64,000 nt of DNA from a virus (IMGVR_UViG_3300021387_000074); one strand, 5' to 3'. Counted from the stretch's first letter, positions 13,511-39,852 are shown. The notes: generated by a model not told the origin, from the sequence alone. Translations and numbers: made by a program.

Positions 13511-13990
13511 ATGATTAACGAAGGACAATTTGAAACAAAAGCAAAAACATATAAATCAAACATCAGTTTAGATAAAGAGTTAAGAAAATATGGTCTTGAC
13601 TATAATGGTGGAGACACTATTTATTCTAAAAATAAAGCCACTATGGTTTCTTGGAGAATGAAGGAAAAAATTATTAATTACCTTAAAAACAAAGGAAAAT
13701 TTACAATGCCAGACTGGAAAGGTAATGAATATTTTTTGGAATACAATTTAAGAACCAAAAAATTTGAAATAGTTAGACTGCTTAACAGTATCGGCTGGGA
13801 AACAAAATGGTATGACCCAGTTGTTATAGATGTAGAAGACGATCCGCTGTTTAAAAGGATTGCTGAAATTGCTGTTTTGCAAAAGAAAAATGCAAACGTA
13901 GAGCCAAATAGGACTGGAAAAGATATAGAATCTGTAGCACAATATGCAAATGAGCATTTAAAAGAAGAGGCTAATTACTTCCCTTATTAA
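13511..13990 (+). CDS. Putative internal head protein with C-terminal YFPY tag
   Basis: Starts MINEG, ends KEEANYFPY*; leaderless after AAGTTAA. Confidence 0.6.
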   Translation: MINEGQFETKAKTYKSNISLDKELRKYGLDYNGGDTIYSKNKATMVSWRMKEKIINYLKNKGKFTMPDWKGNEYFLEYNLRTKKFEIVRLLNSIGWETKWYDPVVIDVEDDPLFKRIAEIAVLQKKNANVEPNRTGKDIESVAQYANEHLKEEANYFPY

Positions 13991-13992
13991 TT

Positions 13993-14649
13993 ATGAACTT
14001 TAACGATTTGAAAGAAAAAGATTTAAGGGAAGAAATCCTTTCCTTAAACGAAGAAAACATTCATGATTTTTTCTCAGAAGAAAGAGAGATAGAAACTCTT
14101 TATGGAAATGTCGCCTATAATTATATTTATAATCAGGGCGACTATTTCTTGCTGGGTGAAGATAAATCATTTTCTTCGCTCGAACAAATGGTTAAGTATA
14201 TAAATGAGCAATATGACGATATGGTAGATTTGCCACTGACAGAAGAGTTAGTTCAAGCAAAGTTTAAATATCGTTCTAAGTATCCAAACAAAGGATACCA
14301 AATCCATGATAAAAGACCGAAAGTGATTGTATTAGATAATGATTATATTTATGATGGCAAAGGAAATGTAAAACCTGGACGTCATGATATTTTAGCATTT
14401 AATTTAAATTACTCAAAAGATAAAAAAACTGATAAGAGAGCAATAGATGAAATAGTTTCTTTTGCACATCTTCTTAAAAAAGAAAAGAAAGATGTTTATG
14501 AAAGAATTAAAAAGTTTTATCCAGAAGTAGTTAAAAATAATTTAAGATGTTATAAGCCACAGCAGATGTCTAAGATTAAAAGAAAAGAGGGCTGGTTTTA
14601 TAAACAGTGTAGTGTCGCAGATTTAGCACCTACAAACGAATGGGACTAG
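13993..14649 (+). CDS. Putative internal head protein containing a second gp2-like domain
   Basis: MNFNDL...LNEE...LTEE leader; FKY...HDKRPKVIVL...ILAFNLNY...RCYK parallels 10798. Confidence 0.45.
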   Translation: MNFNDLKEKDLREEILSLNEENIHDFFSEEREIETLYGNVAYNYIYNQGDYFLLGEDKSFSSLEQMVKYINEQYDDMVDLPLTEELVQAKFKYRSKYPNKGYQIHDKRPKVIVLDNDYIYDGKGNVKPGRHDILAFNLNYSKDKKTDKRAIDEIVSFAHLLKKEKKDVYERIKKFYPEVVKNNLRCYKPQQMSKIKRKEGWFYKQCSVADLAPTNEWD

Positions 14650-14665
14650 ACTAGAAGTTAATCTT

Positions 14666-16696
14666 ATGAGTATAAGATATAAATATGTAAGGCTTCTTAC
14701 AGAAGGATATAATTTTTCAAATGCTGACGAAACAATCTCGGCAATTAAAGCAAATCAAGTAGGTGTAAAAGTAAATAGCTCATTTAAAGTCGCAATAGAA
14801 GAACAACCTAATTCTTTAAAGAGGGCCCTAAAACACTTTTTTGAAAAATGTGAACAATTAGGCATTAAAGAAACAACTTATGGGGTTCAACTGTTATTAT
14901 CAAAAACAGACTGTTTAAATAATAGTGATGATGAAGACGACGATGATTATTATCCAGAAAATAGTTTATTTTCTGATGTTATAAAGTCAGATGGTTTTTA
15001 TGAAATTCTTAAATCTTATAAAAAACCTTGGGTAAAAGAAATGCCAGCTTTCCAATCTTTAATGGAAAGAAAAAGCTGGAACTTCACAAGCCTTGATACA
15101 TTACACGAATTAGAGAAAGACATTCAAAGAGAACAGGGAAATCACGGAAAGAAATCAAAGGGTTCTGGAGAGATGCAAGATGTAAAAGTTCTCTATAATG
15201 ATGGAACTTGGAAACTCTTACAGCCAACTTCATTCCAAGGAGAAAAGGCAGCTGCCTTCTATATTAAAGATGGCAAAGAAACTCCAACTGAATGGTGTAC
15301 AAGATGTGATGAGTACTACTACAATCATTATACACAACTTGGGCCACTTTATATTATTAGAAATATGAAAAGTGGAAAATCTTATCAGCTTGCCTTTACA
15401 GAATATAGTGTAGAATTCCTTGACCAAAATGATGAAAAGGGAGACAAAGTTACAACTGGAGATTTAAATCCAATTCCAGATAATCTTTTAAAATTAATCA
15501 AACATCCAAAAAATGGCAGAACACTGTTAGATTATAAAACATCAAGAAATAAAGCACTTAGTGCTCCAGAAAAGAAAGGTTATTTAAAAACAGATAATGT
15601 TGGAACTGGCCCAGGTGATTTCAAATATGGCCCAACGGTACAACTAGATAACAATATTTGCAAAAAAGATATTTTGAATTTTTCTTATGATAGTTTTAGA
15701 GATTCTTTATCTGATTATTTTACAAGTTCAAAGCCAATACAGGTATCTGAAAAATATGTTAAAAGACATAAAGCAACAGCTTACTTTATAAAAGGTAAAG
15801 AAGAAGCCTTAATGGTTTTACAGACTTTGGGTAAAGAAGGAAAATCATTTGTAGATGGAACTATCTTGGAAACTAAAAAATTTCAAGACTTAACTCCTGA
15901 TGAAAAATATGATGTATATAGAGTTGCTCAAAAAGATTTTGGTGTAACAAAAAGCAGAGAAAGAGCTGAAATGGCCATAGATAGAAAAAATGGCTTGATG
16001 AAGAGATATAATACTAAATCAGAAAATATATCACAAGAAGACCATGATAAACTTGTTGATAATATAAACTCTAGATTGGACTTTAGTAAATCTAAATTGT
16101 TTAAAGGTTTAAATGGTATTTCTATTCCATATTTTGGAAGAACTGGTGAGTGGGGAACTAAGGCAATGTATGGTAAAACCTTAGTGAAAGATTTGAGTCT
16201 TATCCCAACAAGAGAGCTAGAAAGAGAACTACCACCTAATATGAGAAATTCAAGTGTTACGGTAATTTTTAAATATTTAGATGGTGAAACTAATCTTAAA
16301 GCTGCTGATACAGTTACTTGGAATAAAGCGAATGCTGCTATTTTGATAACTGGCTATGGTAATTATGGTTGTTTAAAACTTTCAAAAGAAGAGTTTGAAC
16401 TTTGTAAAAAAGTTGCTATTGAAATTCAAAAAGAATTTATTAAAGACCCAGATTATAGAAAATTAAACATGCAAAGAAAAATTGAGCAAGAAGCTCAAAG
16501 CCAAAAAGAAAACAGAGGTAAAATATTAACAAAGCAACAACTCGAAAATACAGTCGGAAAAGATATGGCCCATAGGCTAACACATCTTGATAACGAAAAA
16601 GCTGGAACAAGATTCCCAGTTCATGTTATGAAATCAATTAATCAAGCAACTCATAGACCAGATTTGTATGAGGAGGTAAATTATTTTGACTATTAA
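14666..16696 (+). CDS. Large multidomain putative internal head protein with YFDY tag
   Basis: LLTEG leader; EWCTRC...YY.HY..LGPLYII domain; ends YEEVNYFDY*. Confidence 0.55.
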   Translation: MSIRYKYVRLLTEGYNFSNADETISAIKANQVGVKVNSSFKVAIEEQPNSLKRALKHFFEKCEQLGIKETTYGVQLLLSKTDCLNNSDDEDDDDYYPENSLFSDVIKSDGFYEILKSYKKPWVKEMPAFQSLMERKSWNFTSLDTLHELEKDIQREQGNHGKKSKGSGEMQDVKVLYNDGTWKLLQPTSFQGEKAAAFYIKDGKETPTEWCTRCDEYYYNHYTQLGPLYIIRNMKSGKSYQLAFTEYSVEFLDQNDEKGDKVTTGDLNPIPDNLLKLIKHPKNGRTLLDYKTSRNKALSAPEKKGYLKTDNVGTGPGDFKYGPTVQLDNNICKKDILNFSYDSFRDSLSDYFTSSKPIQVSEKYVKRHKATAYFIKGKEEALMVLQTLGKEGKSFVDGTILETKKFQDLTPDEKYDVYRVAQKDFGVTKSRERAEMAIDRKNGLMKRYNTKSENISQEDHDKLVDNINSRLDFSKSKLFKGLNGISIPYFGRTGEWGTKAMYGKTLVKDLSLIPTRELERELPPNMRNSSVTVIFKYLDGETNLKAADTVTWNKANAAILITGYGNYGCLKLSKEEFELCKKVAIEIQKEFIKDPDYRKLNMQRKIEQEAQSQKENRGKILTKQQLENTVGKDMAHRLTHLDNEKAGTRFPVHVMKSINQATHRPDLYEEVNYFDY

Positions 16697-17983: not shown

Positions 17984-18790
17984 ATGAACTTTGAAGATTT
18001 AATACTTAATGAACAAAAGAATATAGACTTTGATAAAATATACACAAAGCCAGAAATAGCAAAGATGTGCATTTCTAAATGCAATATAAAATCTTATGAT
18101 AGAATTATTGAGCCATCTGCTGGCTCTGGCGCTTTTTCTTCTCAAATACCAAATTGCGAAGCTTATGATTTAATGCCAGAAGACAATTCTATTAAAAAAC
18201 AAGATTTTTTAAAATTCAGCACAGATAAAGGAAACATACTTGTTATTGGTAACCCACCGTTTGGTCATGCAAATGATTTAAGTTTAAAGTTTATTAATAA
18301 TGCTGCTAAGTTCGCAAGAACTATAGCATTCATTCTTCCTAAATCTTGTCAAAAGGAAACATTTATAAACAGACTTGATAAAAATGTTCATCTCAGAAGA
18401 GTTGTAGAATTACCAAGAAACTCTTTCCTCATTAAAGGAGTTACTCCTTGTGATATAAGTTGCAACTTCTTTATTTTTGATGTTAAAAATAAAGAAAGAA
18501 TTAGGGCAGAGAAACCAATTACAAACGATTTTGTTTTTACAAGAGATAAAGAAAAGGCAGATTTTGCTATCTTAAGAAAAGGGAGTGGTGTTGGAAAATT
18601 ACTTACAAAAGATGATACCAAATACTCAGAAGCAAGTAAATATTATATTAAGTCAAATATAGGAAAGAGAGAACTTTGGAGAAGATTAATGACTGTAAAT
18701 TACCCAGAGGCAAGAATGACGCTCGCTTCTGATTCAATTTCACAGTTGGAGATAATTAGAAATTATAATTTAAAGTTTGGAGAAAAATAA
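17984..18790 (+). CDS. SAM-dependent amino (N6-A/N4-C) DNA methyltransferase
   Basis: Motif I IIEPSAGSGAF, motif IV VIGNPPFG, N-terminal DKIYT; no cognate endonuclease adjacent. Confidence 0.85.
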   Translation: MNFEDLILNEQKNIDFDKIYTKPEIAKMCISKCNIKSYDRIIEPSAGSGAFSSQIPNCEAYDLMPEDNSIKKQDFLKFSTDKGNILVIGNPPFGHANDLSLKFINNAAKFARTIAFILPKSCQKETFINRLDKNVHLRRVVELPRNSFLIKGVTPCDISCNFFIFDVKNKERIRAEKPITNDFVFTRDKEKADFAILRKGSGVGKLLTKDDTKYSEASKYYIKSNIGKRELWRRLMTVNYPEARMTLASDSISQLEIIRNYNLKFGEK

Positions 18791-19764
18791 TGAATTTTGA
18801 AGAAGTAGAAATAATTTTAGAAGAAATATATGGAAACGCTGGAATTGTTTATCATAGGGGCAACGAAAATAAACTTTCTAGGCTTCTTGAAAAAAATTAT
18901 GTTAATTATAACAAAGTAGATTTTGATAATTGGGATAAAGCTTTATATACAACTTATGATTTAAAATCCCAAATAAAAAATAGTTCTCAGAACATGAAAG
19001 CTGTTTATGGAAAATACATTATAAAGTTATATGTAAAAGGTATTAGAAATTTTTGGTTTTGTGATTATAAAACATATTCTTTATATAATTCTTGCACTTT
19101 GGAAAACTGGAAACAACAACAATTTAATAAATTTAAGATACCGAAAGAATTTCAAAGTGTTTTGATGGGGAGTGATAAAAATGAAACTGCACATCATTCT
19201 GTCATTAGTAGATTTTTTGAAAAACAAAAATATTTAGCAACAAGGGTAAAAGGAATAGAATATAATTCATCTGCTGATGGTCACTGCTTGTTAATTTATG
19301 ATTGGTCTACTGCTGTTCCAATTTCATATAGCGAAGATGAAGGAAAGTCTTGGAAAAAAATTGAAAAAAATAAAACTTTATTTCAAAAAAACAAATTAAA
19401 AAATAATGATTATATTGAATTTTATAAAGAAAAAGTAGTAAGCCAAAACAGTAAGCCAAAAATAGAGGCTGTAGTTAAACAAAATGGAGATTGTGATTTC
19501 TCAAGAAAAGCTATTAAAACTTTAAGTGGAAAGAACTTGCCAGAAATAATAAATGGAAACTTTAACTGTAGTTATAATTTATTAACAAATTTAGATGGAG
19601 CACCAAAAAAAATAAAAAAAGATTTTATTTGTCATGGTAACAAATCACTAAAAAAAGCAAATATAATTAAGTATTTACAAGTAGCAGATATTGGTGGAAA
19701 AATTATTACAGATTTTGGAGAGTTTGATTCTAAAGCTGAAGCTTTAAAAAATTTTCCCTATTAA
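18790..19764 (+). CDS. ADP-ribosyltransferase-fold protein with leucine-rich-like repeat and NFPY tag
   Basis: IVYHRG...ALYTTYD...VYGKYIIKLYV...KGIEY...LLIYD pattern; GNFNCSYNLLTNLDGAPKKI repeat; ends ALKNFPY*. Confidence 0.5.
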   Translation: MNFEEVEIILEEIYGNAGIVYHRGNENKLSRLLEKNYVNYNKVDFDNWDKALYTTYDLKSQIKNSSQNMKAVYGKYIIKLYVKGIRNFWFCDYKTYSLYNSCTLENWKQQQFNKFKIPKEFQSVLMGSDKNETAHHSVISRFFEKQKYLATRVKGIEYNSSADGHCLLIYDWSTAVPISYSEDEGKSWKKIEKNKTLFQKNKLKNNDYIEFYKEKVVSQNSKPKIEAVVKQNGDCDFSRKAIKTLSGKNLPEIINGNFNCSYNLLTNLDGAPKKIKKDFICHGNKSLKKANIIKYLQVADIGGKIITDFGEFDSKAEALKNFPY

Positions 19765-20737: not shown

Positions 20738-21982
20738 ATGGATTTTCAAGACGCAATAAACATAGTAGAAGGAATTCAAGCCCTTGAGAAAGGAAAAAAA
20801 GGATGTATCCTTTTTGATATAGATGACTGCTTACTTCAGGCAGATTCAAAGGCTATTGGTATTATAAAAAGAGAACCTGGAAAAGACCCAGTTAGACTTT
20901 CTACAGACCAATACGCAAAAGACCCCGATGCAGCAACTCATAGAGATTGGTTCTCTTATGAAGAGTTCAGAGACCCAGAAAAAGTATACGCATCAATCGT
21001 AGGCGGAACACCACTTCTTAGACAGATGAGATTGCTTGACGCACATATCAAAGCAAACTATGATATCGCTTTCTTGACAGCTAGAGGCTTGCAAGACGTT
21101 GTAGATGCTGCTTTAAGAGCATTCTTGAAAGTAAAAGACGCTAATGGTAATTTATCTCCTATTGGTGATAGACTTAAGTCAGAAATTTCTGCAGCAGTAA
21201 ATGACGAAATTAAAGCATACCCTGGAGCAAACGACCCAGAGAAAAAAGGTATGGTAATCAAGAACATTTGCCAGAAATATGACAAGGTTAAGTTTGTTGA
21301 TGATGATTTGAAGAATGTAAACTTCGCCAAATCTTTGAAGTTGCCAAATCTTCAAGTTATTCTTGCTAACAAAGCACCACTTACAAGAGGAATAACAGAA
21401 GACGTTTTAGAGGAAGAAATTTCTAAAAAGGTCACAAAGAAACTTGACAAACTTGAGAAGTTAGCAGAAAAGTTTAATAAACAAGCAAGGCAAGCAAATG
21501 CCAAAATGATGGTTTATTTAAGATCAAAAGAAGGCAAAGAACTTTCAGAAAGCAAACAGGAAAAACTTTTCAAAGTAGCTCTTCAATTAAATAAAGCCCA
21601 GCAGGAATTAAAGAATATAAAAGAATTAAAAAAATTCAACGATAAAACTAGTCCTGTATCAAAAGAAGACGCTAAGAAATTAGAAAAAGAAATAATGGGA
21701 GTTATAAAAGAAACAAAAAGACAAATAAAAGATAGTATGGACGATCCAATAGTTAAAACAATTCTTAGAGATGCTGGAGTTTTATCTATATTCGTTGGTT
21801 TGCCTTCAATTTTGTCAGCAATTATATTTGATGGAATTCCAACTCTTGGACCAGCTGGTGTTGCTGTTGGTGTTTATGATGTTGGTGTAGCTCACCATAA
21901 CAGAAAAGCTGCAAGATATAGAGCCTTAGGAACCACAAGAGAAATAAAATATTCTTCTAAAAAGAAGGAGACAGAAGACTAA
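20738..21982 (+). CDS. HAD-superfamily phosphatase fused to coiled-coil and C-terminal TM region
   Basis: ILFDIDDCLL (motif I), FLTARG (II), PEKK (III), FVDDD (IV); leader MDFQDAINIVE; internal ITEDVLEEE. Confidence 0.75.
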   Translation: MDFQDAINIVEGIQALEKGKKGCILFDIDDCLLQADSKAIGIIKREPGKDPVRLSTDQYAKDPDAATHRDWFSYEEFRDPEKVYASIVGGTPLLRQMRLLDAHIKANYDIAFLTARGLQDVVDAALRAFLKVKDANGNLSPIGDRLKSEISAAVNDEIKAYPGANDPEKKGMVIKNICQKYDKVKFVDDDLKNVNFAKSLKLPNLQVILANKAPLTRGITEDVLEEEISKKVTKKLDKLEKLAEKFNKQARQANAKMMVYLRSKEGKELSESKQEKLFKVALQLNKAQQELKNIKELKKFNDKTSPVSKEDAKKLEKEIMGVIKETKRQIKDSMDDPIVKTILRDAGVLSIFVGLPSILSAIIFDGIPTLGPAGVAVGVYDVGVAHHNRKAARYRALGTTREIKYSSKKKETED

Positions 21983-21983
21983 T

Positions 21984-22277
21984 ATGTTTACAAATATAAA
22001 AGTAAAATATAAAAATGAATATTATAATGTTAAAGCATGTTACAACTCTGAAAATAAACAATATAGTTATTTAACTCTTAAAATTAAACCAGAAGAAGAA
22101 ACAGACCCCAAGGCAATTGCTAAACAAAATAAAATTTTTGCTTTGGCTTTAAAAATATTAAATAAAAAAACAAAAAGTAAATATGAAATGTACGAAGCTG
22201 AATGCGAAGATGGAGAAGTTACTTTTTGGATTTATCAAAAAAAGAAGGCAATCAAGGAAGACTATTTCCCTTACTAA
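21984..22277 (+). CDS. Small protein with YFPY tag
   Basis: Ends AIKEDYFPY*. Confidence 0.65.
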   Translation: MFTNIKVKYKNEYYNVKACYNSENKQYSYLTLKIKPEEETDPKAIAKQNKIFALALKILNKKTKSKYEMYEAECEDGEVTFWIYQKKKAIKEDYFPY

Positions 22278-22323: not shown

Positions 22324-23157
22324 ATGACAATTAACGATATATTAAATGAAGTAAATGTAGAATTTGGTAATGGACAATCTTTAGCTGTTACTGATGCTCT
22401 CAAACAGAGAACTACTTATGATAAAACTGGAGCCAAAGACGAGCTTTATACAAAGACGGCAGATTTAGCAACTCGTAGAGTAAATACTAAAGGTAGTGTT
22501 GCAAACGTTATTGAATATCTTAAAAAGAAAGGTGTTTGGGACAAGGTTGCAACCAAGCAGAGTTTTAGAACTACAGATTTAGTATTCAAAGCTGATGGTT
22601 CTTGTCAGGTTAATTATGACGATGGTGGTGGAATTTTAATTCCAAAAGAAGTTGTAAATGTGACAACGCCAATAGCACAAAAAACATTTGTTCAGAAATT
22701 TAGAGAAAAAATTCAGGCTTCTACAATTACTGAAGAAATCTTAGAAGAAGACGTAAAAGAAAAAATTGCAAAATTTGTAAAAACTAAACTAATCCCATGC
22801 GCTGTTGTTGCTGGAATTATGGCAGGCGGAGTTGCCGCAGTTAGCGCTTCAACTAAAAGCATGGTAAACAGCGTTAAGAAAACTGTTAAAATTTTAACCG
22901 CAAACAAAGATAAAGTGCAAGCAGTAGTAGGAAACGATAACATTTCTTATGACGCAAATAAAAATATTTTAACGGTAAATGGAAAGTCAAAAAAAGCAAG
23001 CGACAGTGTTCAGGATGCTTGGTGGGACGCTTTCCCAGACGAGACAGATGTAGAGTTTACAGACGAAAAGGTTGGTAGTGATACACTACAAAGACTGCAG
23101 CCTGCCCAATTAAATCCAACTGGACGCAACATTCAAGAAGATTATTTTCCATATTAA
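22324..23157 (+). CDS. Putative internal head polyprotein with YFPY tag
   Basis: MTINDILNE leader, internal ITEEILEED followed by a hydrophobic segment, ends IQEDYFPY*. Confidence 0.6.
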   Translation: MTINDILNEVNVEFGNGQSLAVTDALKQRTTYDKTGAKDELYTKTADLATRRVNTKGSVANVIEYLKKKGVWDKVATKQSFRTTDLVFKADGSCQVNYDDGGGILIPKEVVNVTTPIAQKTFVQKFREKIQASTITEEILEEDVKEKIAKFVKTKLIPCAVVAGIMAGGVAAVSASTKSMVNSVKKTVKILTANKDKVQAVVGNDNISYDANKNILTVNGKSKKASDSVQDAWWDAFPDETDVEFTDEKVGSDTLQRLQPAQLNPTGRNIQEDYFPY

Positions 23158-23229: not shown

Positions 23230-24372
23230 ATGATTACAGAAAATTCTTTAAAAATATTATTGGAAGGAAAACCAACTTTACAAAGAGATATAATGCTTAA
23301 AGCAAAACCGTTTTTAAAAAAATATGGAATTGATTTTGACTTAAGTAATTATCAGAATGATGGCTATTTAAGAGCTGGCGGATACAAATTTTGGTTTGAT
23401 GATGAAGAAAGAGATTTCAGAACAAATGAGCCAAAATATGCTGGCAAAGGTTTTGCTGACATAAGAGAATTGTTAGCATATGCTCTTGATATAAAAGAAG
23501 CAGAAAAAGAACATAGAAATACTTGGGGGCTTCAAACTTATTTGGCTAGATCAAAACCAAACAAAGGATATAGCAACAATCTTTATAAGAAAGTTGTATC
23601 AGAAGAAGTTCTTGAAGAAAGTGAACTTTCAAGAGCAAAAGCAGATGTTGCTTACAGAGAACTAGAAAAGAAAATTAAAGAAAAAGGCTGGGCCATTAAC
23701 CAATATATGAATGATAGAAAGGAACGTTCTAGACTTTCACCAAACGAGATGTTTGTAAATAAAGGAAACATTGGTGGTCAATTATATATCTTAGATTTAA
23801 AAACTGGTATTGCAAAGCCAGAAGGTGAAATTAATGTTGGTAGAGACCAAGAGTTAATGACACTTTTTAAGACTGCAAGACACTATTTCCAAAAGAATGA
23901 TGGTAATGGAAATTATCCTGAAAACTCTTATCAAACAAGACTCTTTTCTAAATCTGAATACGAAAAAGGAAAAAAATATGAAAGAGAAGGAAAATACAAT
24001 CCTGCTTATGATTTATCAGATAACAGATATAAATCCAATAGCCATGTTCGTTTAAGAGATAGAAATTATGCATCAAAAGCACTTAAAGAAGAAACTATTG
24101 TAGAGGGTTCTCATCACGCAAAATATTCACCAGCAATTAATTATAAATGTGTTAATAATTATTTGATTAAGGCGAGAAAAGCACTTAAAGAAGGAAATAT
24201 AAAAGAAGCTGAAAAGTGGGCTTGGGAAGCTAATATAACAATGCACGAAGATGAAATGCAAGGGCCAGGAGTTGCTGCTGATAAAAATGCTTATAACATT
24301 TTTCACAAGCAACTTAGCAATATACATAGCGCTATTTTAGCAGCAAAAAAAGCAAATAAGGAGAACAACTAA
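23230..24372 (+). CDS. Putative internal head polyprotein (three modules separated by x-x-E sites)
   Basis: KILLE|G, EEVLEE|S, EETIVE|G. Confidence 0.55.
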   Translation: MITENSLKILLEGKPTLQRDIMLKAKPFLKKYGIDFDLSNYQNDGYLRAGGYKFWFDDEERDFRTNEPKYAGKGFADIRELLAYALDIKEAEKEHRNTWGLQTYLARSKPNKGYSNNLYKKVVSEEVLEESELSRAKADVAYRELEKKIKEKGWAINQYMNDRKERSRLSPNEMFVNKGNIGGQLYILDLKTGIAKPEGEINVGRDQELMTLFKTARHYFQKNDGNGNYPENSYQTRLFSKSEYEKGKKYEREGKYNPAYDLSDNRYKSNSHVRLRDRNYASKALKEETIVEGSHHAKYSPAINYKCVNNYLIKARKALKEGNIKEAEKWAWEANITMHEDEMQGPGVAADKNAYNIFHKQLSNIHSAILAAKKANKENN

Positions 24373-24995
24373 TGAACTATTTTATGAAATGTCAACTTTT
24401 ATCTGAAGGATTTAAGCATGATCAACTTATAGAAGAGGATTGGGAAGAACTTAAAAAGCAGCTTGCCGATTTATATGCAAAAAACGAAATAACTCAAAGA
24501 CAAGTTCAAACAAGACTTGCCAGAGCTGGCTGTACTTATGCTGCTCATCACGCTCAGAAAATTGCAGATGAGAGAGGTGGAGAAAGACAAGCAATTCTTG
24601 ATAAAATAGAAAAAGAAAAACAAGAAAAGGCAATGAGAGCCGCTGCAGAAGCTCAGGCTGCTAAACATCAAACAAGAGGTTCTGCGGCCGCTGAATACAA
24701 CAGCGAAGCAAGCAGAGCTGCTTGGCTAAAAGCTGCTAATGAATATAGAGCAAGAAAAGAAAAAGAAAGACAGAATCTTTCTCATAGCTTTACAAAAGCT
24801 TGGAACAATCACGAAGTTGGTAATATCGTAAAAGCAAAAGTTGTTAAAGAAAACGTATTTGAAAATATGTTTAATAAACTTTGCGAAATGGAAGAAGAGT
24901 TAAATATTGAACTTACAGAAGAACAGGTTGCTAATCTTTTCGAAGAAGTATTTGAAGAAATAGTTGAAGAGAAATCTAACTATTTTAATTACTAA
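24372..24995 (+). CDS. Putative internal head protein with YFNY tag
   Basis: LLSEG...LIEED leader, Ala-rich helices, ends IVEEKSNYFNY*. Confidence 0.6.
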   Translation: MNYFMKCQLLSEGFKHDQLIEEDWEELKKQLADLYAKNEITQRQVQTRLARAGCTYAAHHAQKIADERGGERQAILDKIEKEKQEKAMRAAAEAQAAKHQTRGSAAAEYNSEASRAAWLKAANEYRARKEKERQNLSHSFTKAWNNHEVGNIVKAKVVKENVFENMFNKLCEMEEELNIELTEEQVANLFEEVFEEIVEEKSNYFNY

Positions 24996-25017: not shown

Positions 25018-25938
25018 ATGAAAACATTGAATGAAGGTGAAGCACTTAATAAAATAAAGAAAGGTTTAAAGGGAGCAGCTATCGGTGCTGGAGTACTTGG
25101 AGCAACTGCTGCAGGTATAACTGGCTATGGTGCTGTTAATGGCGTAAAACAAGCAAGAGCAGAAAAAGCAGCTCTGGAAAGACAGGCAGAGGAAGAAAGA
25201 GCAGCAAAGGATAAGTTTGCAAATGATCTTTCTCAAAATCTTCACAAAAGAGGTGTTGAAGTATCAGATTATGCAACAACAAGCGCTAGAGGTGCTAAAG
25301 AAATAGCTGCTTTTGCTAAAGCTTACGAAAATGGAACCTTTGAAGGTGACGTAGACGATAAAGTTAACGAGCTTTGTGATAAATATGGAGTAGATAATTA
25401 TATTAAAGTTCTTAATGGTCTTGAGGTTGCAAACAAAGCAAAAACCAGATTAAAAACTGCAGCTATAACTTTTAAAACAAATGCTAAATTAGCAGCAAAA
25501 GAAGGTGCAACAAAAGTAAAAGAAGGCGCAGTAAAAGTAAAAGAATTCTTACAGAAAAAAGCTAACTCAGCAATGCAAGAGGCAAAAAACAAAAAAGTAT
25601 TGCATGATGAAAAAAAGATAGCAGCAGAAATGAAAAATTATGTTGCATCATTGGCTGAAGAAATGAATGGAGCCTCACATACAATATATAATGCATATAG
25701 AGATGATTCTAGTTCTTGGGATCTGATTCCTTTTTGCCAAAAAGAATATTTAAAAGGGCTTATTTTAAGAGAGGGCGAAGAAAATGTAAAAAAAGCCATT
25801 GGACTTTTAAAAACTCAAGATTTTGGAGAACGAAAAATTACTTCTCAGTATGTTTGGAGTCATCAATACAAAAAAGCTGTTGAAGAGCTAAAGGATAGTG
25901 GTTTTTTAAAAGAAGAAGTAAATTATTTCCCTTACTAA
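25018..25938 (+). CDS. Putative internal head/ejection protein with YFPY tag
   Basis: Start moved to ATG 25018 (SD ggag); MKTLNE|G then GAAIGAGVLGATAAG; ends LKEEVNYFPY*. Confidence 0.6.
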   Translation: MKTLNEGEALNKIKKGLKGAAIGAGVLGATAAGITGYGAVNGVKQARAEKAALERQAEEERAAKDKFANDLSQNLHKRGVEVSDYATTSARGAKEIAAFAKAYENGTFEGDVDDKVNELCDKYGVDNYIKVLNGLEVANKAKTRLKTAAITFKTNAKLAAKEGATKVKEGAVKVKEFLQKKANSAMQEAKNKKVLHDEKKIAAEMKNYVASLAEEMNGASHTIYNAYRDDSSSWDLIPFCQKEYLKGLILREGEENVKKAIGLLKTQDFGERKITSQYVWSHQYKKAVEELKDSGFLKEEVNYFPY

Positions 25939-25998: not shown

Positions 25999-27930
25999 AT
26001 GACAGAAAAAGAGAGAAAATTTAAAGAGTCTATATTAAAGAAAATACAAGACTATGAAATAAAAAAAGATAAAAACACATATGTCACTTTCAATGATTGC
26101 TTAAAGCATGCAAAAAATCAATTTGTTGAAACTGTTTATTACGACCAATCTAGAGAATTAATAGATGTTGGTATTGAAACATATTTATGTCGAAAATCAC
26201 CATATTATTTTATTTCTAGATATTGTTCTTTTACGCTTCCTGGTGTTGGCGAACTTCCAGGAAGTAATTTATATTACTACCAAAAAGAAATTCTTAAAGA
26301 CTTTATTTTTCATAAAAAGGTTGTTTTGACAAAATCTCGTCAGACTGGTCTTTCAACACTTATGGCTTTAATCTTCTTTTGGAGAATTGTATTCTTCGAT
26401 TCTCAATGGGGTGTTGTAATATCTAAAGACGGTAAATCTTCTACAGATGTTTATGAAAAGATAAAAGACAATTTTAAAAACATTCCTTATTGGCTTGGTG
26501 TAAAAGATGTTATAAACAACCAAAAGGGTTGTAAGTTTAGTAATAAATCAAAAATAGATACATTCGCAAGGTCTAAATCAGCAGGTCGTGGTACTTCACC
26601 TACTATACTTTTACTTGATGAATTTGGTTTTTATCAGACAAAAGGTATTGCTGAAGGTATTGTTTCTTCAGTAGTTCCATCTGCAGCTAAAACGGGTGCT
26701 CCTATATTCATTGTTTCTACGCCTAATGGTACAACTGGTGAAGGACAATTATACTACGAACAAGTACAAGAATTAAAAAATTGCGGTGGCTATGACCCAA
26801 TGACAGAAGCCGTCCTTTACGATGTTCAGTGGTGGATGTGTCCTGACTACCCAACAATTACACCACACAAAGGATACAATGATAAACTAAAATATTTTGA
26901 GGATAGAGATTACTGGAACAACCCAGAAGTAAAAAAAGAAGCAGAAGAATTCTTTAAACCAATAGCAGAAAAACCAAAAGAGAATCCTTGGCTTGCTTAT
27001 CAGTTTAAAACTTCTGGTGAAGTAAAATATCGTCAGGAAATTCTTCAAGATTTCGTTGTAATGGGAAACTCTGTATTCTCAAAAACTGTTTTGGAGAAGG
27101 TTCAAGAAAAGGTTTTAAATCCTGTGAAGGAAGGAGACCTTGGCACAAGAAACTGGAAAGGTTTATGGTATTGGCTATTACCAGAAAAGGGACACAGATA
27201 TGGTATTGGAATGGACGTTGCAAAAGGAACGGCAGACGACTCTACTTCTATTCAAGTTCTTGATATAGATACTGGTGAACAAGTGGCAGAATACCTTGGA
27301 AGAATTTCAACAAAAGAAGCAGCTAGGCTTGTTTGCGATTTGGGAAAATATTACAATCATGCATATGTTTATGTAGAATGTAACTCTATTGGTGAAGCAG
27401 TATTTAACGATTTGTATTATAATTATAATTATGAAAATATGTACAAGATGAAGAAAATCAACAAGCACGATAAAACTATGGTTTGGACTGGTTGGATGAC
27501 AACAATGAAGTCCCGTGAAATGATAACAGACTGCTTTATTGATTATATGTCAGATGACGATTATTGGCCGTTGTTCCATCCACATTCACAACGTCTTGTA
27601 GACCAGATGAAAACTTGGGTTTGGGCAGGTGGAAGACCAGACCATACAGAAGGTTCACACGATGATGATATAATGGCTATGGCTATTTTGCTTTATAATT
27701 TGCCTAAGATTAGACAGATTGTACCAAAAGAGGGTGGAGCAAAGAAGGTTGCCTTTATTAATGAGAAAGGTAAAGAAGTTTCTTTGGGCGCTTACAATAA
27801 CGATGAATATAATAGTGCTTATGAAGAGAGAAAAGAAATGGCTGTTGACAAAATTAAGGAGAATTTAGGCTTAATGGATACGCCTTTTGAGGAAGATGCA
27901 TTAAGTATTTATTCTTGGCTTATAAGTTAA
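25999..27930 (+). CDS. terL: Terminase large subunit (T4 gp17-like)
   Basis: YYYQ adenine-binding, Walker A KSRQTGLST, Walker B LLLDEFG, VSTPNG coupling motif, nuclease GMDVAKG and HDDDIMA. Confidence 0.95.
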   Translation: MTEKERKFKESILKKIQDYEIKKDKNTYVTFNDCLKHAKNQFVETVYYDQSRELIDVGIETYLCRKSPYYFISRYCSFTLPGVGELPGSNLYYYQKEILKDFIFHKKVVLTKSRQTGLSTLMALIFFWRIVFFDSQWGVVISKDGKSSTDVYEKIKDNFKNIPYWLGVKDVINNQKGCKFSNKSKIDTFARSKSAGRGTSPTILLLDEFGFYQTKGIAEGIVSSVVPSAAKTGAPIFIVSTPNGTTGEGQLYYEQVQELKNCGGYDPMTEAVLYDVQWWMCPDYPTITPHKGYNDKLKYFEDRDYWNNPEVKKEAEEFFKPIAEKPKENPWLAYQFKTSGEVKYRQEILQDFVVMGNSVFSKTVLEKVQEKVLNPVKEGDLGTRNWKGLWYWLLPEKGHRYGIGMDVAKGTADDSTSIQVLDIDTGEQVAEYLGRISTKEAARLVCDLGKYYNHAYVYVECNSIGEAVFNDLYYNYNYENMYKMKKINKHDKTMVWTGWMTTMKSREMITDCFIDYMSDDDYWPLFHPHSQRLVDQMKTWVWAGGRPDHTEGSHDDDIMAMAILLYNLPKIRQIVPKEGGAKKVAFINEKGKEVSLGAYNNDEYNSAYEERKEMAVDKIKENLGLMDTPFEEDALSIYSWLIS

Positions 27931-27951: not shown

Positions 27952-29259
27952 ATGAATATTGATTTTTTACTAGAGGCAGTTAAAGAAGACCCTCAGACAT
28001 ATAGAGACTTGGCAAGATTTGCAAGAGATAATCCAAAACCAAAAGCAAACCCATTGGCAGCTCGTATGGCGGCAGAGCAGGCTAGAAAAGATGCGCATAG
28101 AGGTGCAGCTGCAGATTCAAGAGATGTTAAGCGTGTAAGTGACTATGATAAAGTAGGTGGTATTACAACATTGGGTGATTTGGCCGCTAAATATGATTCA
28201 ATTAAAACTGCTAAAAGAAATTTAGCTCTCGCTGTTTTAAAGGTTGAAAGAGCACTTAGCTGTCAAACTGAAGAAGGTCACGATTTAAACGAAAAGAATA
28301 TACCTGCTGCAGTTAACAAAGCAGTTGTTGGACTTCAAGAAGCATTAACAAAGGCTAAAACAGTTGGCGCTGTTAATAGTGGTGTAATTAATTATTACAA
28401 AGAACTTATTAAAGACTGTAAACAGAACATTGACCTAGAAGACGAAGTAGAAAGAAACAGTGCAGTTAGAGATGTTGTTCTTAATACTAAGAGATTTGGT
28501 CTTGATAAATATATTAATGATTCAGACAGCCCAGTTCCAAAGAATACACCAGTTGGACCAGAAAAAGCTTCTTGGTTAGCAAACATTCATGGTGAAAATG
28601 GAAAAGATAGCAGAAATGCAAAACTTAAGAAAGCAGATAAAGAAGTAGAAGACGCATCATATGCAAAAATGAAGGAGATTGCTTCAGCTTCTGAAAGACT
28701 TAGAACAGCTATCAGAAAGGGTGATTTGCCAGAAGGCTCATCAATCAAAGATTTGATTGCGAAAGAAAATAAAGAAAGAGCTGCTGAAGGAAAACCAACT
28801 TCGCAGAGATATACTAACAATTTCCAGAATATGGCTTCACCAGAAAGACTTAAGGAACTTAATATTTCTACTTTGAAAGATAGACCAGTTGAAGGTTGTG
28901 ATAATGTAAAAGCTCTTGTTAAGAAATGGAAAGAAAACGGAAAACAGCCAGCAGGACAAATTGAAATTGTTTATCGTCCAGCTAAACTCCCAGAGGGAGC
29001 TGCTAAATACGATGTTCAGACAAAGCCAGTTGTTTATATTGCTGGAAATTATTATTCTGTTCCACAGAACGATTTGTTCACTAAATCTCAAAATGGTATA
29101 GCAATGCCAGAAGATAAAGATGGAAATCCAAACCCTTACATTGGTTATGTAAGACCTTACAAGGTATCACAAAAAGATCCAAAGCATGCTGACATAAGAG
29201 CAAAACTTAAGGTTCATTCTTCTGTAGTTACAGAGGAAGTAAACTTCTTTAATTACTAA
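27952..29259 (+). CDS. Putative internal head protein with FFNY tag
   Basis: MNIDFLLE|A leader; ends VVTEEVNFFNY*. Confidence 0.6.
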   Translation: MNIDFLLEAVKEDPQTYRDLARFARDNPKPKANPLAARMAAEQARKDAHRGAAADSRDVKRVSDYDKVGGITTLGDLAAKYDSIKTAKRNLALAVLKVERALSCQTEEGHDLNEKNIPAAVNKAVVGLQEALTKAKTVGAVNSGVINYYKELIKDCKQNIDLEDEVERNSAVRDVVLNTKRFGLDKYINDSDSPVPKNTPVGPEKASWLANIHGENGKDSRNAKLKKADKEVEDASYAKMKEIASASERLRTAIRKGDLPEGSSIKDLIAKENKERAAEGKPTSQRYTNNFQNMASPERLKELNISTLKDRPVEGCDNVKALVKKWKENGKQPAGQIEIVYRPAKLPEGAAKYDVQTKPVVYIAGNYYSVPQNDLFTKSQNGIAMPEDKDGNPNPYIGYVRPYKVSQKDPKHADIRAKLKVHSSVVTEEVNFFNY

Positions 29260-34980: not shown

Positions 34981-36990
34981 ATGATTGTTAACGGTAAAGA
35001 AGTAAATATAGATTATAGAGCTGCACAAACAATTCAGCAGCGCTTAGATGTTTCTCCAGAAATTCCAGAAACAGCAAAAGTAGAAGTTTCAAAAAAAGAC
35101 ATAAAGGAATTAAACCAGTCATTTGATAGTGGTGTTTCTAATTATAATGAAGCGTTAATGTACGGTAATTTGTATGGTACAGAAAATCAGTTATTGACTG
35201 GTTTAAATGCTTCTGAAAATAGGGCTAGCTATTATCAAGTTTTTGACCAAATGGATGGATGTCCATTTATTCACAGAGGTTTGCAGGTTATTGCAGACGA
35301 TGCTTGTCAAAAAAACGTAGACGGTGATACTGTAAAAGTTTATTCAGATGACGAAGATATAAAAGAAATATTGGAAAAATTATTCCACGAAAGATTAAAT
35401 CTTAATAAAGAGCTTTGGTCTATATTTTTTGAAACTTGTAAACTTGGTGATAACTTTTACGAAATAATTCCAGACAGTTATGAACATCCAACTGAGATTT
35501 CTAGAATTAGATATTTGGACCCAAGAAAAACAAATAGAATAGAAAAGAATGGAAAACTTGCTTTCTATACATACAGAACAGACTTAGATAATAACGAATA
35601 TACAACTGGTGTTGGAGATGATTCAAAAACAAAGCAAGAAGTTATTTATAAACTTCAGCCTTGGCAAGTTATTCACTTTAAAATCACAGATAAAAAATTT
35701 GCACCATATGGTGGTTCTTTATTGAGCCCTGGTGTTCAGGCTTACAGACGCTACTCTATGCTTGAAGATGCTATGCTTGTATATCGTTTGGCTCGTGTAC
35801 CAGAAAGACGTGTATTTAAAATAGATACTGGAAACCTTTCTACTGCAGAAGCAATGAGAGCCGTTCAGAAAATTAAAGACAATAATAGATCTCGTTCAAT
35901 TCTTGACGAAAAGGGAAATATTCAGAAAAACGCTTTGGCTCTTTCTTTGCTTGATGATATTTATATTCCAGTAAGAGAGGGACAGAATAGTACAGAAGTT
36001 ACAACATTACAACCAGGTGTTGGTTTAAATAATATCGACGATATTAGACACTTCAGAGATGAAATTCTTTGGATTCTTAATATTCCACCAGAGTATTTAG
36101 GTTTTACTTCTGACCAGAATAGTGGTATGGCTGGTAAAGGTTCCCTTGCTATGCAAGACGTTAAATTCGCTAGATTTGTTGAAAGAATTCAATATTATGT
36201 AGAAGAAGGTTTAACAAAGATTGCAGCTATTGAATTGTTCTTTAAGAAAAAGAAAAAAGCAGACTTAAAGAATTTTAAACTTGAACTTACACCACCTTCA
36301 AACGTTAAAGAGATTATGGATATCGAATATCTTAACCAAAAAATATCTCTTGTTTCTGCTATGCTTGGAACTCAATTATTCCCTAAAGATTTCATTCTTA
36401 AATATGTAATGAAGATGTCAAGAAAAGAAATATCTGACATTAATCTTCAGAAAGATATTGAAGCTTCTACACTTGCAGCTATGCAAGGCGGCATAGGTGG
36501 AGATATGGGTATGGGTGGAATGCCTATGGGTGGAGATATGGGAGCTGGAATGCCTATGGGTGGAGATATGGGAGCTGGAGGAGCACCTGTAGCACCTATG
36601 ATGTCTGTTAAAACAGAAGAGTTCTCACCAAAAGCAATGGTTAACATTTTCGGAAAAGAAGTTCTCATAGAACATAAAGAAGACTACGCAAAAATTGTAA
36701 AAGCGTATGAAGATTACAAAAAAGAAAAAGAAGAAAATTTAATAAAAGAAGAAATAGAAGAAAGTCTTTCTAACAACGAGTTTTTATCAAAGGTTAAAGA
36801 CTTGTTGATAAAAGAAGAAACAATTAAAACAAATAAAACTGCAAGTAATCTTTATTACGAAAATGAACTTGGTGGTTTAAATTTTGCTAAAGAACAGTTT
36901 ACTATTTATAGTAAGCCAAAGAAAAGAACTGGACCTTCATCTAAAAAATCTTCAAGAATAATTACAGAAGAGATAACAAGAGATTTATAG
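34981..36990 (+). CDS. Portal protein (T4 gp20-like)
   Basis: MLEDAMLVYRLARVPERRVFKIDTGNL, DDIYIPVREG..TEVTTL.PG, F.KFVERIQ motifs. Confidence 0.95.
   Translation: MIVNGKEVNIDYRAAQTIQQRLDVSPEIPETAKVEVSKKDIKELNQSFDSGVSNYNEALMYGNLYGTENQLLTGLNASENRASYYQVFDQMDGCPFIHRGLQVIADDACQKNVDGDTVKVYSDDEDIKEILEKLFHERLNLNKELWSIFFETCKLGDNFYEIIPDSYEHPTEISRIRYLDPRKTNRIEKNGKLAFYTYRTDLDNNEYTTGVGDDSKTKQEVIYKLQPWQVIHFKITDKKFAPYGGSLLSPGVQAYRRYSMLEDAMLVYRLARVPERRVFKIDTGNLSTAEAMRAVQKIKDNNRSRSILDEKGNIQKNALALSLLDDIYIPVREGQNSTEVTTLQPGVGLNNIDDIRHFRDEILWILNIPPEYLGFTSDQNSGMAGKGSLAMQDVKFARFVERIQYYVEEGLTKIAAIELFFKKKKKADLKNFKLELTPPSNVKEIMDIEYLNQKISLVSAMLGTQLFPKDFILKYVMKMSRKEISDINLQKDIEASTLAAMQGGIGGDMGMGGMPMGGDMGAGMPMGGDMGAGGAPVAPMMSVKTEEFSPKAMVNIFGKEVLIEHKEDYAKIVKAYEDYKKEKEENLIKEEIEESLSNNEFLSKVKDLLIKEETIKTNKTASNLYYENELGGLNFAKEQFTIYSKPKKRTGPSSKKSSRIITEEITRDL
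36517..36576 (+). repeat. Exact 30-bp tandem duplication in the portal Met/Gly linker
   Basis: ggaatgcctatgggtggagatatgggagct x2 (GMPMGGDMGA). Confidence 0.95.
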
Positions 36991-37721: not shown

Positions 37722-38804
37722 ATGGAAATTACAAGTAGCAAATTGTCAAATTATATTTTGTTTAGTAATAAAAATCTTGAGAAGTGTGTTAGATCTTTGA
37801 TTAACGAATCTTCTAACGCAGTTCTGCTTGAGTCTTATAATGATAAGCTGCTTTTAGCTGATCACAACAGTGGTGCTATTTACTTGGCAGATTATAAATT
37901 TGATGGAAAAATTCTTACAGTTGAGAATTATGAACAAGTAGACGTTGTTAACGATAAATCAAACCTTAAAGAAGCAATTGAAAATTACTTCGATTCTGAT
38001 GGTTATGACGTTGCAAGCATTGTAGAAGCTTATGAAGAAGATTCAGAAGCAGAAAACACAGACCTTAGAGAAAGTATCGTAGAGGCTTTGGCTTCAAAAA
38101 AACAGGATATTGCTGATTATTCACAACTTGAAGGAATTAACGAAGAAATCGGTGAAGTAAAAGATATGCAGTTCTTCAAGAACTACACAAAATATCTTAC
38201 AGAATCTCCAACTTCTAGCATTAAATATTTCAATTGGATAGACCCAGTTAGAGTATCAATTATCGACGAGGATGCTTCAAACATTATCGTTTCTGGTTCA
38301 AAAGACAAAGCAAAGAAACTTGCAAAAGATAAAGAATTCAAAGATATGTTTGCTAATGCGGCAAGAGAATTGATGGAGGGAAATTCTCTCGAAATGGAAG
38401 AACTTCTTGAAGATAACTCAGCAATCCTTGCTCTTGACAACGTTGAAATGAAAGAGTTCATTGGTATGTCTATCATCGGCGACAAAGAACTTATGGAAAG
38501 CAGAAAAGAAATCATAGACGCTGTAAGCGGAATTATTTCAGAAAATGAAAATCTTCAGGAAATGAAGATGCTTTTCGAAGAAGATGCAGAAGACGATGGT
38601 GCAGAAGAAAATAAAGAATTGGCAACTTCTGACAAAGATATCGACGCTTTGAAGAAAGCTTTGGATAAAGCAGCAGAAAACATTTCTGACGAAGCTATCA
38701 TTTCAAAGATTAATTCTTTGAAAGATGCTTTGGATTCTTCAAAAGATTCTGGTTCTACAGATGTTGGAACAGTTAAAGAGTGTGTTGAACTGCTTAGCTT
38801 CTAA
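37722..38804 (+). CDS. Acidic helical protein, candidate prohead core/scaffold
   Basis: Very D/E-rich, many [LIV]-x-E sites, located near the portal; start moved to ATG 37722 (SD aggag). Confidence 0.45.
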   Translation: MEITSSKLSNYILFSNKNLEKCVRSLINESSNAVLLESYNDKLLLADHNSGAIYLADYKFDGKILTVENYEQVDVVNDKSNLKEAIENYFDSDGYDVASIVEAYEEDSEAENTDLRESIVEALASKKQDIADYSQLEGINEEIGEVKDMQFFKNYTKYLTESPTSSIKYFNWIDPVRVSIIDEDASNIIVSGSKDKAKKLAKDKEFKDMFANAARELMEGNSLEMEELLEDNSAILALDNVEMKEFIGMSIIGDKELMESRKEIIDAVSGIISENENLQEMKMLFEEDAEDDGAEENKELATSDKDIDALKKALDKAAENISDEAIISKINSLKDALDSSKDSGSTDVGTVKECVELLSF

Positions 38805-38823
38805 TTTTAAATAAGTAATTTAT

Positions 38824-38855
38824 AATGGGTTGCTTTAAAGCAACCCATTTTTTTT
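38824..38855 (+). terminator. Rho-independent terminator
   Basis: aatgggttgctttaaagcaacccatt palindrome followed by T run. Confidence 0.85.
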
Positions 38856-38862
38856 ATCCGCA

Positions 38863-38931
38863 CCGAGTGGACAAATTTGACGCACGTCACGACACAGATG
38901 TCCGTTATGCAACATACTAAGTAACAAGTAG
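38863..38931. repeat. 69-bp intergenic palindromic element, copy 2
   Basis: 61/69 identical to 4439-4507. Confidence 0.9.
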
Positions 38932-38968
38932 CATTTTAGTTTTTAAAAGTTAAAATTAGGAGCAATTC

Positions 38969-39421
38969 ATGTTAGGTTTAGAAATTATTAAACAGACAAT
39001 GCAACAAAATAGTTCTAATGGCGGAATGTCAGAAGAATTAAGAAAGAAAATAGCTATAGCGAAAATAAATGAATCAATCAGACAAATTGGTGATAATTGG
39101 TTCTTTTCAAATATTCTTGATAGAATTATTAATTCAGAATTACCAGAAGAAAGTAAAGGTGAATTAATAGAACATTTGAAATCAGAATACGTTTCTTTAA
39201 GTAAAGAAATAAAGAAAGAATTAGATGAAATTTTTGGAGCAGAAAAACAAGCATCTGTAAAAGCTGATGATAATGTTGATGTTAAAGGAAAAGAAGAAAT
39301 TGGACAGTCTAAAGAAGGCAGTTCAGAAGAGGCTGCACAAGACGACTCCGAAGATGAACACAAAACACCAGCAGAGCACGTAGTTGAGCAGAAACCAGGA
39401 CAAAGTATTTTTAATTATTAA
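38969..39421 (+). CDS. Hypothetical protein with IFNY tag
   Basis: Ends GQSIFNY*; AAGTTAA and SD. Confidence 0.65.
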   Translation: MLGLEIIKQTMQQNSSNGGMSEELRKKIAIAKINESIRQIGDNWFFSNILDRIINSELPEESKGELIEHLKSEYVSLSKEIKKELDEIFGAEKQASVKADDNVDVKGKEEIGQSKEGSSEEAAQDDSEDEHKTPAEHVVEQKPGQSIFNY

Positions 39422-39432
39422 GGAGAGAAAAT

Positions 39433-39852
39433 ATGACTATACAAGACATTATTTCTTCTAACTCTGATACGACTTCAGAATTTAAGAATAGAATTACAAA
39501 AAAGAATATAGAAAGAGAAATAACTCTTAGATTTGAAGATTTCAAAAGGTCATTTTTTGGCAGTATAGAATGTACAGCCAAAGCAATATCTGCTGGAACA
39601 ATAGCAGTAAGTTGGAAAGAAGAAAGAGAAGGAGTTGTAATATCTGAGGAACTTAAAAAAGAACTTTTGACAAATTTAAAAGCAACTTGCTATAAAAGAT
39701 TACAAGAGCTTGACCAATATATAAGAGATGTCTTTGAAATAAAAGAAGAAAAAGCAACCGTTGAAACACCTTCAGAACCAACTGGTGATTCTGATAGTGG
39801 TGAAGAAACAGAAGCAAGTGTAAATACTACAAAAGATTATTTCAATTATTAA
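39433..39852 (+). CDS. Hypothetical protein with YFNY tag
   Basis: Ends TTKDYFNY*. Confidence 0.65.
   Translation: MTIQDIISSNSDTTSEFKNRITKKNIEREITLRFEDFKRSFFGSIECTAKAISAGTIAVSWKEEREGVVISEELKKELLTNLKATCYKRLQELDQYIRDVFEIKEEKATVETPSEPTGDSDSGEETEASVNTTKDYFNY

Follow-up and report, generated by a model that had tools for sequence, protein, structure and literature searches.

The capsid-targeting signals known from phages are either N-terminal, as in T4 and P1, or borne by a single assembly protein, whereas the element considered here, a short aromatic C-terminal tag of the form [YF]-F-x-Y-COOH (x mostly P, N, D or G), is present on about one tenth of the open reading frames (ORFs) examined. It was recognised in a 64,000-nucleotide stretch of the virus IMGVR_UViG_3300021387_000074 (the whole stretch is referred to as the window), in which ten proteins encoded between positions 13,511 and 39,852 carry it. 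The bearers of the tag are a clade of uncultured T4-like jumbo phages from the rumen with a GC content of about 30% (about 31% in the window). The original prediction read the tag as an address that loads diverse cargo into the prohead and is clipped off at maturation, a reading to which we give a probability of about 0.45.

In T4, the capsid-targeting sequence (CTS) of the internal proteins IPI-III and of Alt is N-terminal (Mullaney & Black 1996, as summarised in PMC7411985 and PMC9024508). The tag resembles the CTS in being a short terminal element on unrelated cargo beside an [LI]-x-E site of the gp21 type (packaging and cleavage being presumed here), and the setting is similarly T4-like, with a gp20-type portal in the window, a gp21-family protease and a gp23-type capsid in relatives, and comparable N-terminal leaders in the window. 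Unlike the CTS, the tag lies at the extreme C-terminus, probably needs a free carboxylate and shares no sequence with it. In P1, an N-terminal signal is sufficient to load the large anti-defence protein DarB into a myovirus head (PMC9024508); this signal differs from the tag in its position, and the Dar proteins have no shared consensus.

Encapsulin cargo is loaded by C-terminal cargo-loading peptides (CLPs) of about 10 residues behind flexible linkers, which are common to different cargoes, bind the luminal face of the HK97-fold shell and are transferable to foreign proteins (PMC8229669). The tag is likewise a short C-terminal peptide on a flexible tail, in 21 families, but its Y-F-x-Y core is unlike the G/S/L-rich CLPs, which are not cleaved, and encapsulins are cellular compartments without portal, protease or DNA, whereas the tag occurs in a tailed phage with portal, terminase and sheath. 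Because its position sets it apart from the CTS, and its sequence, presumed cleavage and context from the CLP, the tag is akin to both and a member of neither.

The scaffold/protease tails of herpesviruses contain C-terminal segments that direct proteins to the procapsid and are removed by the maturation protease. The C-terminal region of the HK97 protease reportedly targets the procapsid, as Duda and colleagues are said to have described in 2013. In SPN3US, N-terminal propeptides are removed in 13 of the 14 mapped cleavages and a C-terminal propeptide is found in the protease only (PMC10052503, PMC7411985); the latter, 64 residues long in the gp245 protease, has been proposed to serve prohead targeting (PMC7411985, PMC10052503). 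These signals are longer and sit on one or two assembly proteins, unlike the tag, which comprises 4–10 residues and occurs on at least 21 families. The earlier claim that no such C-terminal tag was known has therefore to be narrowed: precedents exist in the encapsulin CLPs, the HK97 and SPN3US proteases and the herpesvirus tails, while full-text literature searches, which are not proof of absence, returned no description of a short C-terminal tag common to many tailed-phage cargo proteins. If the tag is indeed a loading address, it would represent a new way of addressing cargo in tailed phages, intermediate between the T4 CTS and the encapsulin loading peptides, and a minimal handle for packaging foreign proteins.

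The ten ORFs (97–676 amino acids, aa) all lie on the + strand, each with a TAA stop at the end coordinate and the tail F-[PND]-Y first reported for it, and this ending is absent from all other ORFs of at least 50 aa on both strands of the whole window. Given the amino-acid composition of the window, a terminal F-[PNDG]-Y is expected by chance with a frequency of 0.0005 at each terminus, which amounts to 0.04 for 81 ORFs, against the 10 observed; in 2000 shuffles the mean number of tagged ends was 0.04 and the maximum 2. Within the window proteins the same motif is not enriched (13 internal occurrences vs 10.5 expected), which makes it specific to the C-terminus. Codons vary among the ten tags for Y (TAT/TAC), F (TTT/TTC), P (CCT/CCC/CCA) and N/D (AAT/GAC), and this synonymous variation places the constraint on the peptide and not on the DNA, in agreement with the original prediction.

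In a set of 35 tags, Y at −1 and F at −3 are invariant (35/35 each); position −2 is P in 19, N in 10, G in 4 and D in 2, position −4 is Y in 28 and otherwise F, I, M, C or N, and position −5 is N in 19, D in 6 and S in 5. The AlphaFold2 (AF2) model of the 676-aa tagged protein has a predicted local distance difference test score (pLDDT) of 84, with residues 664–676 below 50, and that of the 435-aa tagged protein, a helical bundle with a small alpha/beta domain, has a pLDDT of 70 and a disordered stretch of 15 residues at its end. The low scores (pLDDT <50) of the last 13–15 residues in both models suggest a free flexible tail, as of a short linear motif. The tag is under peptide-level selection that is independent of the protein body, and it may tentatively be described as a portable C-terminal short linear docking peptide carried on such a tail, a description whose chances we put just short of even.

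The ten proteins were said to be otherwise unrelated, which holds in that, once the tails are removed, no pair of them matches at BLASTP E<0.05, and has to be qualified for two pairs: the genes at 38969–39421 and 39433–39852 are distant paralogs when compared via their orthologs (E=1e-7 and 6e-4), and those starting at 24372 and 25018 are linked through single genes of relatives. The first tagged gene (13511..13990, 159 aa) is directly preceded by the word TAAGTTAA and ends in H-L-K-E-E-A-N-Y-F-P-Y, as does its ortholog in contig G004, which is 96% identical. In the second (14666..16696, 676 aa; tail D-L-Y-E-E-V-N-Y-F-D-Y), a variable C-terminal half contrasts with a conserved N-terminal domain of roughly 300 aa, and an N-terminal L-L-T-E site is also present. 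The third (18790..19764, 324 aa; tail A-L-K-N-F-P-Y) carries the N-terminal leader MNFEEVEIILEE and has no Pfam or PHROG family and no homolog among the relatives compared. The fourth (21984..22277, 97 aa; tail A-I-K-E-D-Y-F-P-Y) is followed by an intrinsic-terminator-like hairpin, and the fifth (22324..23157, 277 aa; tail N-I-Q-E-D-Y-F-P-Y) has TAAGTTAA upstream and a terminator-like hairpin downstream.

The sixth gene (24372..24995, 207 aa; tail I-V-E-E-K-S-N-Y-F-N-Y) shows the highest enrichment of [LIVM]-x-E density in the window. The seventh (25018..25938, 306 aa; tail F-L-K-E-E-V-N-Y-F-P-Y) encodes a hydrophobic G/A-rich segment and has a terminator-like hairpin downstream; a start at TTG 24964 had been proposed for it, whereas ATG 25018, with a ribosome-binding site and an upstream TAAGTTAA, is most likely the start. 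The eighth (27952..29259, 435 aa; tail S-V-V-T-E-E-V-N-F-F-N-Y) lies directly after the large terminase gene and has the N-terminal leader MNIDFLLEAVKE. The last two are adjoining genes of the portal module, 38969..39421 (150 aa; tail P-G-Q-S-I-F-N-Y; a weak head-scaffolding match to phrog_10439, E=0.0018) and 39433..39852 (139 aa; tail T-T-K-D-Y-F-N-Y), and in both proteins an acidic, low-complexity linker, in the former disordered, precedes the tag. Orthologs of 38969..39421 are tagged in G004 and G002, and those of 39433..39852 in the same two contigs end in YFGY.

The relatives compared are the IMG/VR contigs G001 (65 kb), G002, G004 (103 kb), G005 and G007 and the more distant G009, G010 and G011; portal identity to the window is 72% in both G004 and G002, 67% in G001 and 53% in G005. 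When the C-termini of ORFs of at least 60 aa from nine contigs were scanned and grouped into families by BLAST, the tag was found on 41 of 419 ORFs in 21 families. In the 676-aa family, 52 of 64 homologs end in [YF]-F-x-Y, at identities as low as about 35%, and position −2 can here be Q, E, S or K as well; in the 435-aa family the tail S-V-V-T-E-[ED]-x-N-[FY]-F-x-Y is kept in all 20 homologs (48–97% identity).

The tag is also retained where the protein in front of it changes. Over 350 aa the 676-aa protein is 63% identical to its G001 ortholog; the C-terminal halves of the two are unrelated, and each carries the tag. The 277-aa protein is 91% identical to its G004 ortholog over 142 aa, and the latter ends 12 residues later with the tag VNYFNY. 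The 97-aa protein at 21984 matches, at 88% identity, the C-terminal 96 of the 243 aa of a tagged G001 protein, and a single tagged gene in relatives (375 aa in G001, 361 aa in G004) corresponds to two window genes that are both tagged, with 24372..24995 matching the N-terminal part of both and 25018..25938 matching residues 212–345 of the G001 gene (E=1e-5). Gain or loss is seen at window 8046–8906, which is untagged and whose G004 ortholog (49% identical) ends in SYFGY, and G005 has five tagged proteins without a detectable window homolog. As far as these sequences tell, the putative cargo set turns over while the tag persists, and a portable address would explain how the tag is retained through splits, fusions and domain swaps. 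In the megaphage LR756511, whose portal is 32% identical, there are no such tags near the portal. A tagged 123-aa ORF of G001 (L111:3094–3465; tail IKEEVNYFPY) lies inside a tRNA array, between tRNA-Ala and tRNA-Ser.

A potential cleavage site commonly accompanies the tag. Within the last 14 residues, [LIVM]-x-E is present in 25 of 35 tagged proteins and in 75 of 290 untagged ones (26%), and in 20 of the 25 site-bearing tags it starts at −10 or −8. The seven window tags that had been noted to follow an x-x-E site indeed have [LIVM]-x-E starting at exactly one of these two positions. There are two main registers, Phi-x-E-[ED]-[VAI]-N-Y-F-x-Y and Phi-x-E-[DNS]-Y-F-P-Y; the spacer between the site and Y-F spans 0–3 residues, with E directly before Y-F in one homolog, and this variation suggests that cleavage site and anchor are two separate elements. 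In T4, gp21 cuts off the capsid-targeting propeptides of internal proteins and of Alt at such sites (PMC7411985). A prohead protease of the Peptidase_S77/gp21 family is encoded in G004 (L026:14152–14793; PF03420, E=3.7e-17; phrog_207, E=4.8e-35), by a gene that is not within the window, and it ends in KEIFDAEF, without the tag.

N-terminal leaders ending in [LIVM]-x-E at residues 8–14 are borne by 12 of the 19 genes at 13.5–29.3 kb, with the consensus M-[ND]-F-x-[ED]-Phi-x-x-Phi-Phi-E and with MNFEEVEIILEE, MNFEDLILNE and MDFQDAINIVEG as examples. Genes with such leaders include those starting at 13993, 17551, 17984, 18790, 20154, 20738, 23230 and 27952, and also 39862, and the proteins include methyltransferase-like and PNK-like ones. 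Since the leaders are T4-CTS-like, the 13.5–29 kb block looks like an array of internal proteins.

Tagged genes flank the terminase gene and sit in the portal module, beside scaffold-like genes. In structural-gene strand blocks, the tag is on 25 of 161 ORFs, vs 0 of 61 in opposite-strand blocks (Fisher p=2e-4, where orthologs are not independent counts and the late and early classes are defined by strand block and promoter-like word, not by expression data), so the motif is not equally frequent in the two. Among the ORFs with family matches, no recognised replication, nucleotide-metabolism, tail or baseplate protein is tagged. In G010 and G011, a gp23-type major capsid gene (PF07068, E ~1e-60; L127:7378–8928, − strand, in G010) has a gp22-like acidic scaffold gene directly upstream, and a tagged protein of 520–530 aa is encoded one or two genes upstream of these; a homolog of the leader-bearing window gene 20738–21982 adjoins it. 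Membership of this tagged protein in the 435-aa family was considered and rejected, as the hidden Markov model of that family gave no match.

The PF07068 search found nothing in G001–G009, no capsid protein emerged when about 60 ORFs of the window and 20 of G004 were scanned with PHROGs or Pfam, and a scan with an immuto-like capsid alignment matched only in an unrelated aquatic clade. In the gp22-like scaffolds of the distant relatives (L127:8948–9766 and L128:3168–4001, − strand), long Ser/Asp-rich repeats (SDDSSE...) are followed by a basic C-terminal tail.

A very acidic helical protein of 360 aa is encoded after the portal gene (37722..38804, +), as it is in all relatives; it contains 19 [LIVM]-x-E sites (z ~3 vs shuffles) and a conserved tail, VKECVELLSF, and has no family match. 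It is a candidate for a gp22-like prohead core or scaffold protein and, as such, a possible receptor for the tag. Flavobacterium phage immuto has a protein, likewise of 360 aa, at the corresponding position; homology between the two was considered and could not be detected.

In five paralogs of the 676-aa family (P0032, P0035, P0038, P0047 and P0064; G001 59801–61744, L113/L114), the Phi-Y-E-E site is followed not by the tag but by a different tail, M-Y-E-E-[VI]-x-N-[KR]-[FY]-x-K-L-I-x-G. In the clade of Flavobacterium phage immuto and Microcystis phage Mel-JY01, the gene directly upstream of the gp23-type capsid has the strongly conserved tail R-[MWF]-x-K-L-A-G-[IL]-[IL]-K (57 loci, L029–L109), which is probably the capsid-binding end of the scaffold protein. 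The second paralog tail resembles this scaffold tail, which gives a lead that both tails may be head-binding modules.

The word TAAGTTAA is promoter-like. It occurs at 17 window sites vs 9.4 expected, always co-directional with the genes and nearly always 4–25 nt ahead of a start codon, and many copies overlap the stop of the preceding gene (sites include 13499, 22312, 24993, 25987, 27923, 34955, 37694, 47485 and 48334, with 62185 on the − strand). It precedes the tagged genes at 13511, 22324, 25018 and 27952 and also those of the terminase, the portal and the 360-aa acidic protein.

In the proposed mechanism, the aromatic tail with its free carboxylate would dock on the assembling prohead, either on the core or scaffold or on the inner face of a gp23-type shell, and docking would build the tagged protein into the head. 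A prohead protease of the gp21 family would then cut after Glu, releasing a peptide of 5–7 residues and freeing the cargo inside the head, from where it may be injected with the DNA. Binding, cleavage and packaging of the tagged proteins are steps that we consider nearly, though not quite, as probable as their opposite. The proposal draws on a terminal module that is portable at the peptide level between unrelated proteins, on its confinement to structural blocks and on the [LIVM]-x-E site that usually accompanies it. The wider picture, in which a rumen/gut clade of T4-like jumbo phages uses Phi-x-E, a spacer and Y-F-x-Y-COOH (4–10 residues) as a transferable and self-removing capsid-loading address beside N-terminal leaders, marking more than 20 fast-evolving families that are packaged in the head and probably injected, is put forward with somewhat greater reserve.

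Several observations weigh against loading by the tag. Five or more of the ten bear a T4-CTS-like N-terminal leader in addition to the tag, and as a leader of this type suffices for targeting in T4, the C-terminal tag may serve another role. No receptor for the tag was found, and the gp22-like scaffold beside the capsid gene of G010 and G011 is untagged, which also led us to reject the idea that the tag is merely the tail of the scaffold. Clipping cannot be universal, since 10 of the 35 tags have no nearby [LIVM]-x-E, and T4 is the model from which the cleavage specificity of the clade's protease is assumed. In G001 the homologs of both 38969 and 39433 are untagged, that of 38969 being truncated, and none of the tagged proteins is homologous in sequence to a proven virion protein, the sole link being a fold match of low template-modelling score (TM-score) to a protein of phage PA5oct.

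If the N-terminal leader were itself the address of these head-internal proteins, the tag could be an exosite that docks the protease, or a tether to the core layer that sets copy number or ejection order. The presence of both signals on half or more of the ten would fit such a division of labour, as would the untagged methyltransferase and PNK-like neighbours that have the leader alone, the tight coupling of the tag to [LIVM]-x-E and the use of N-terminal CTSs by T4 (PMC7411985, PMC9024508). The proteins encoded at 13511, 21984, 25018, 38969 and 39433, however, are tagged and have no N-terminal leader, and the tag is kept or regained when genes are split or truncated, which fits an address needed on every polypeptide; we regard the leader as sole address as unlikely. 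Functions of the tag outside the head, all taken together, are somewhat less doubtful than this and still improbable as a class. Among them, docking of late proteins on a hub outside the capsid, such as a phage or host chaperone, a PDZ- or TPR-like carboxylate clamp, the membrane, the tail-assembly machinery or another late complex, has in its favour that Phi-x-Phi-COOH resembles class II PDZ ligands and the 'YxF' signals of outer-membrane proteins, that acidic-aromatic tails commonly bind hubs (for example those of SSB and T7 gp2.5), and that no receptor in the head was found. It would leave the coupled [LIVM]-x-E site without a role and sits poorly with the clustering of tagged genes with terminase, portal, scaffold and capsid genes, and no PDZ, TPR or similar Pfam domain was found in about 60 window ORFs scanned, most of which have no family at all and in which distant domains could escape; such a hub seems distinctly unlikely.

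Hydrophobic or aromatic C-terminal residues are typical degrons, and the tag could in principle be a degron or stability signal, read by a ClpP-like or a host tail-specific protease, that times the turnover of late proteins. A signal of this kind is hard to square with its presence on about 10% of ORFs, some of which encode large conserved proteins and are co-transcribed with terminase and portal, and its re-acquisition after gene splits would be hard to rationalise. The motif is also unlike ssrA-type (LAA) tails, and no transfer-messenger RNA was found in G001 L111 1–8000, nor could a tag peptide be read there; we give a degron little credence. Least probable, and close to negligible, is that there is no protein-function signal at all and that the shared ends reflect a nucleotide-level element where genes end, or an influence of the nascent peptide on translation termination or coupling. 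All tagged genes stop at TAA, four are then followed by terminator-like hairpins and two stops overlap TAAGTTAA, as such an element might require, but TAA is the stop of most genes here, the downstream sequences differ, synonymous codons vary at every position of the tag and −2 itself varies between P, N, D and G; the specific proline context that known arrest peptides require is absent in 16 of the 35 tags.

Searches for the function of the cargo gave little. Neither Pfam nor PHROGs returned anything significant for the ten tagged window proteins or for ten others that carry the tag in relatives, a tblastn search of GenBank phages with the conserved domain of the 676-aa protein gave no match, and Foldseek found nothing in the PDB and only unnamed families in the AFDB; with the 435-aa model it gave generic helical-bundle matches only. 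Against the BFVD, the N-terminal domain of the 676-aa protein matched uncharacterised jumbo-phage proteins, including the PA5oct 'structural protein' (E=7.6e-5, low TM-score). In uncultured jumbo phages, the tag lists candidate head-internal or injected proteins, almost all of which are ORFans there, from sequence alone, and, if the loading reading is true, it would make their injected 'effectorome' readable in the same way. Should the head reading be wrong, the tag would still be among the clearest viral short linear motifs visible in sequence, with a receptor worth finding. A tagged 126-aa protein of G004 (P0065; L024:4585–4962, − strand; G004 24582–24962) shows by eye an R / S-T-S / E-x-E pattern (LYRG...FSTS...EIE), which recalls small ADP-ribosyltransferases and the packaged T4 Alt and has no Pfam support.

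The recognisable genes of the window include those of a tailed phage. The large terminase subunit (25999..27930, +) matches phrog_2 (E=2e-37) and Pfam Terminase_6C, and the gp20-type portal protein (34981..36990, +) is 23–31% identical to T4-like phage portals by tblastn. Further genes encode a tail sheath (50163–53024), a helicase (40322–41704), a thymidylate synthase (41989–42894), a radical-SAM protein (31086–31994), two glycosyltransferase-like proteins (12715–13506 and 30245–31081) and a DNA methyltransferase-like protein (17984–18790). Between the terminase and portal blocks, a lone reverse gene (29294–30022, − strand) has a weak Peptidase_C39-like match (E=0.0013) and is 71% conserved in G001 and G004. 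An ORFan of 825 aa (43293–45770) has the same length in G001, G002, G004 and G005, with AAGTTAA, the core of TAAGTTAA, just upstream; it has no Pfam or PHROG match and is probably a major structural protein. The ORFs at 9736–9957 and 12225–12776 start with nearly identical stretches of 16 residues, MANIANFE[VI][DN]G[AV]SYAYDT, with TAAGTTAA upstream of both, and appear to be a local duplication in which the first copy is much shorter.

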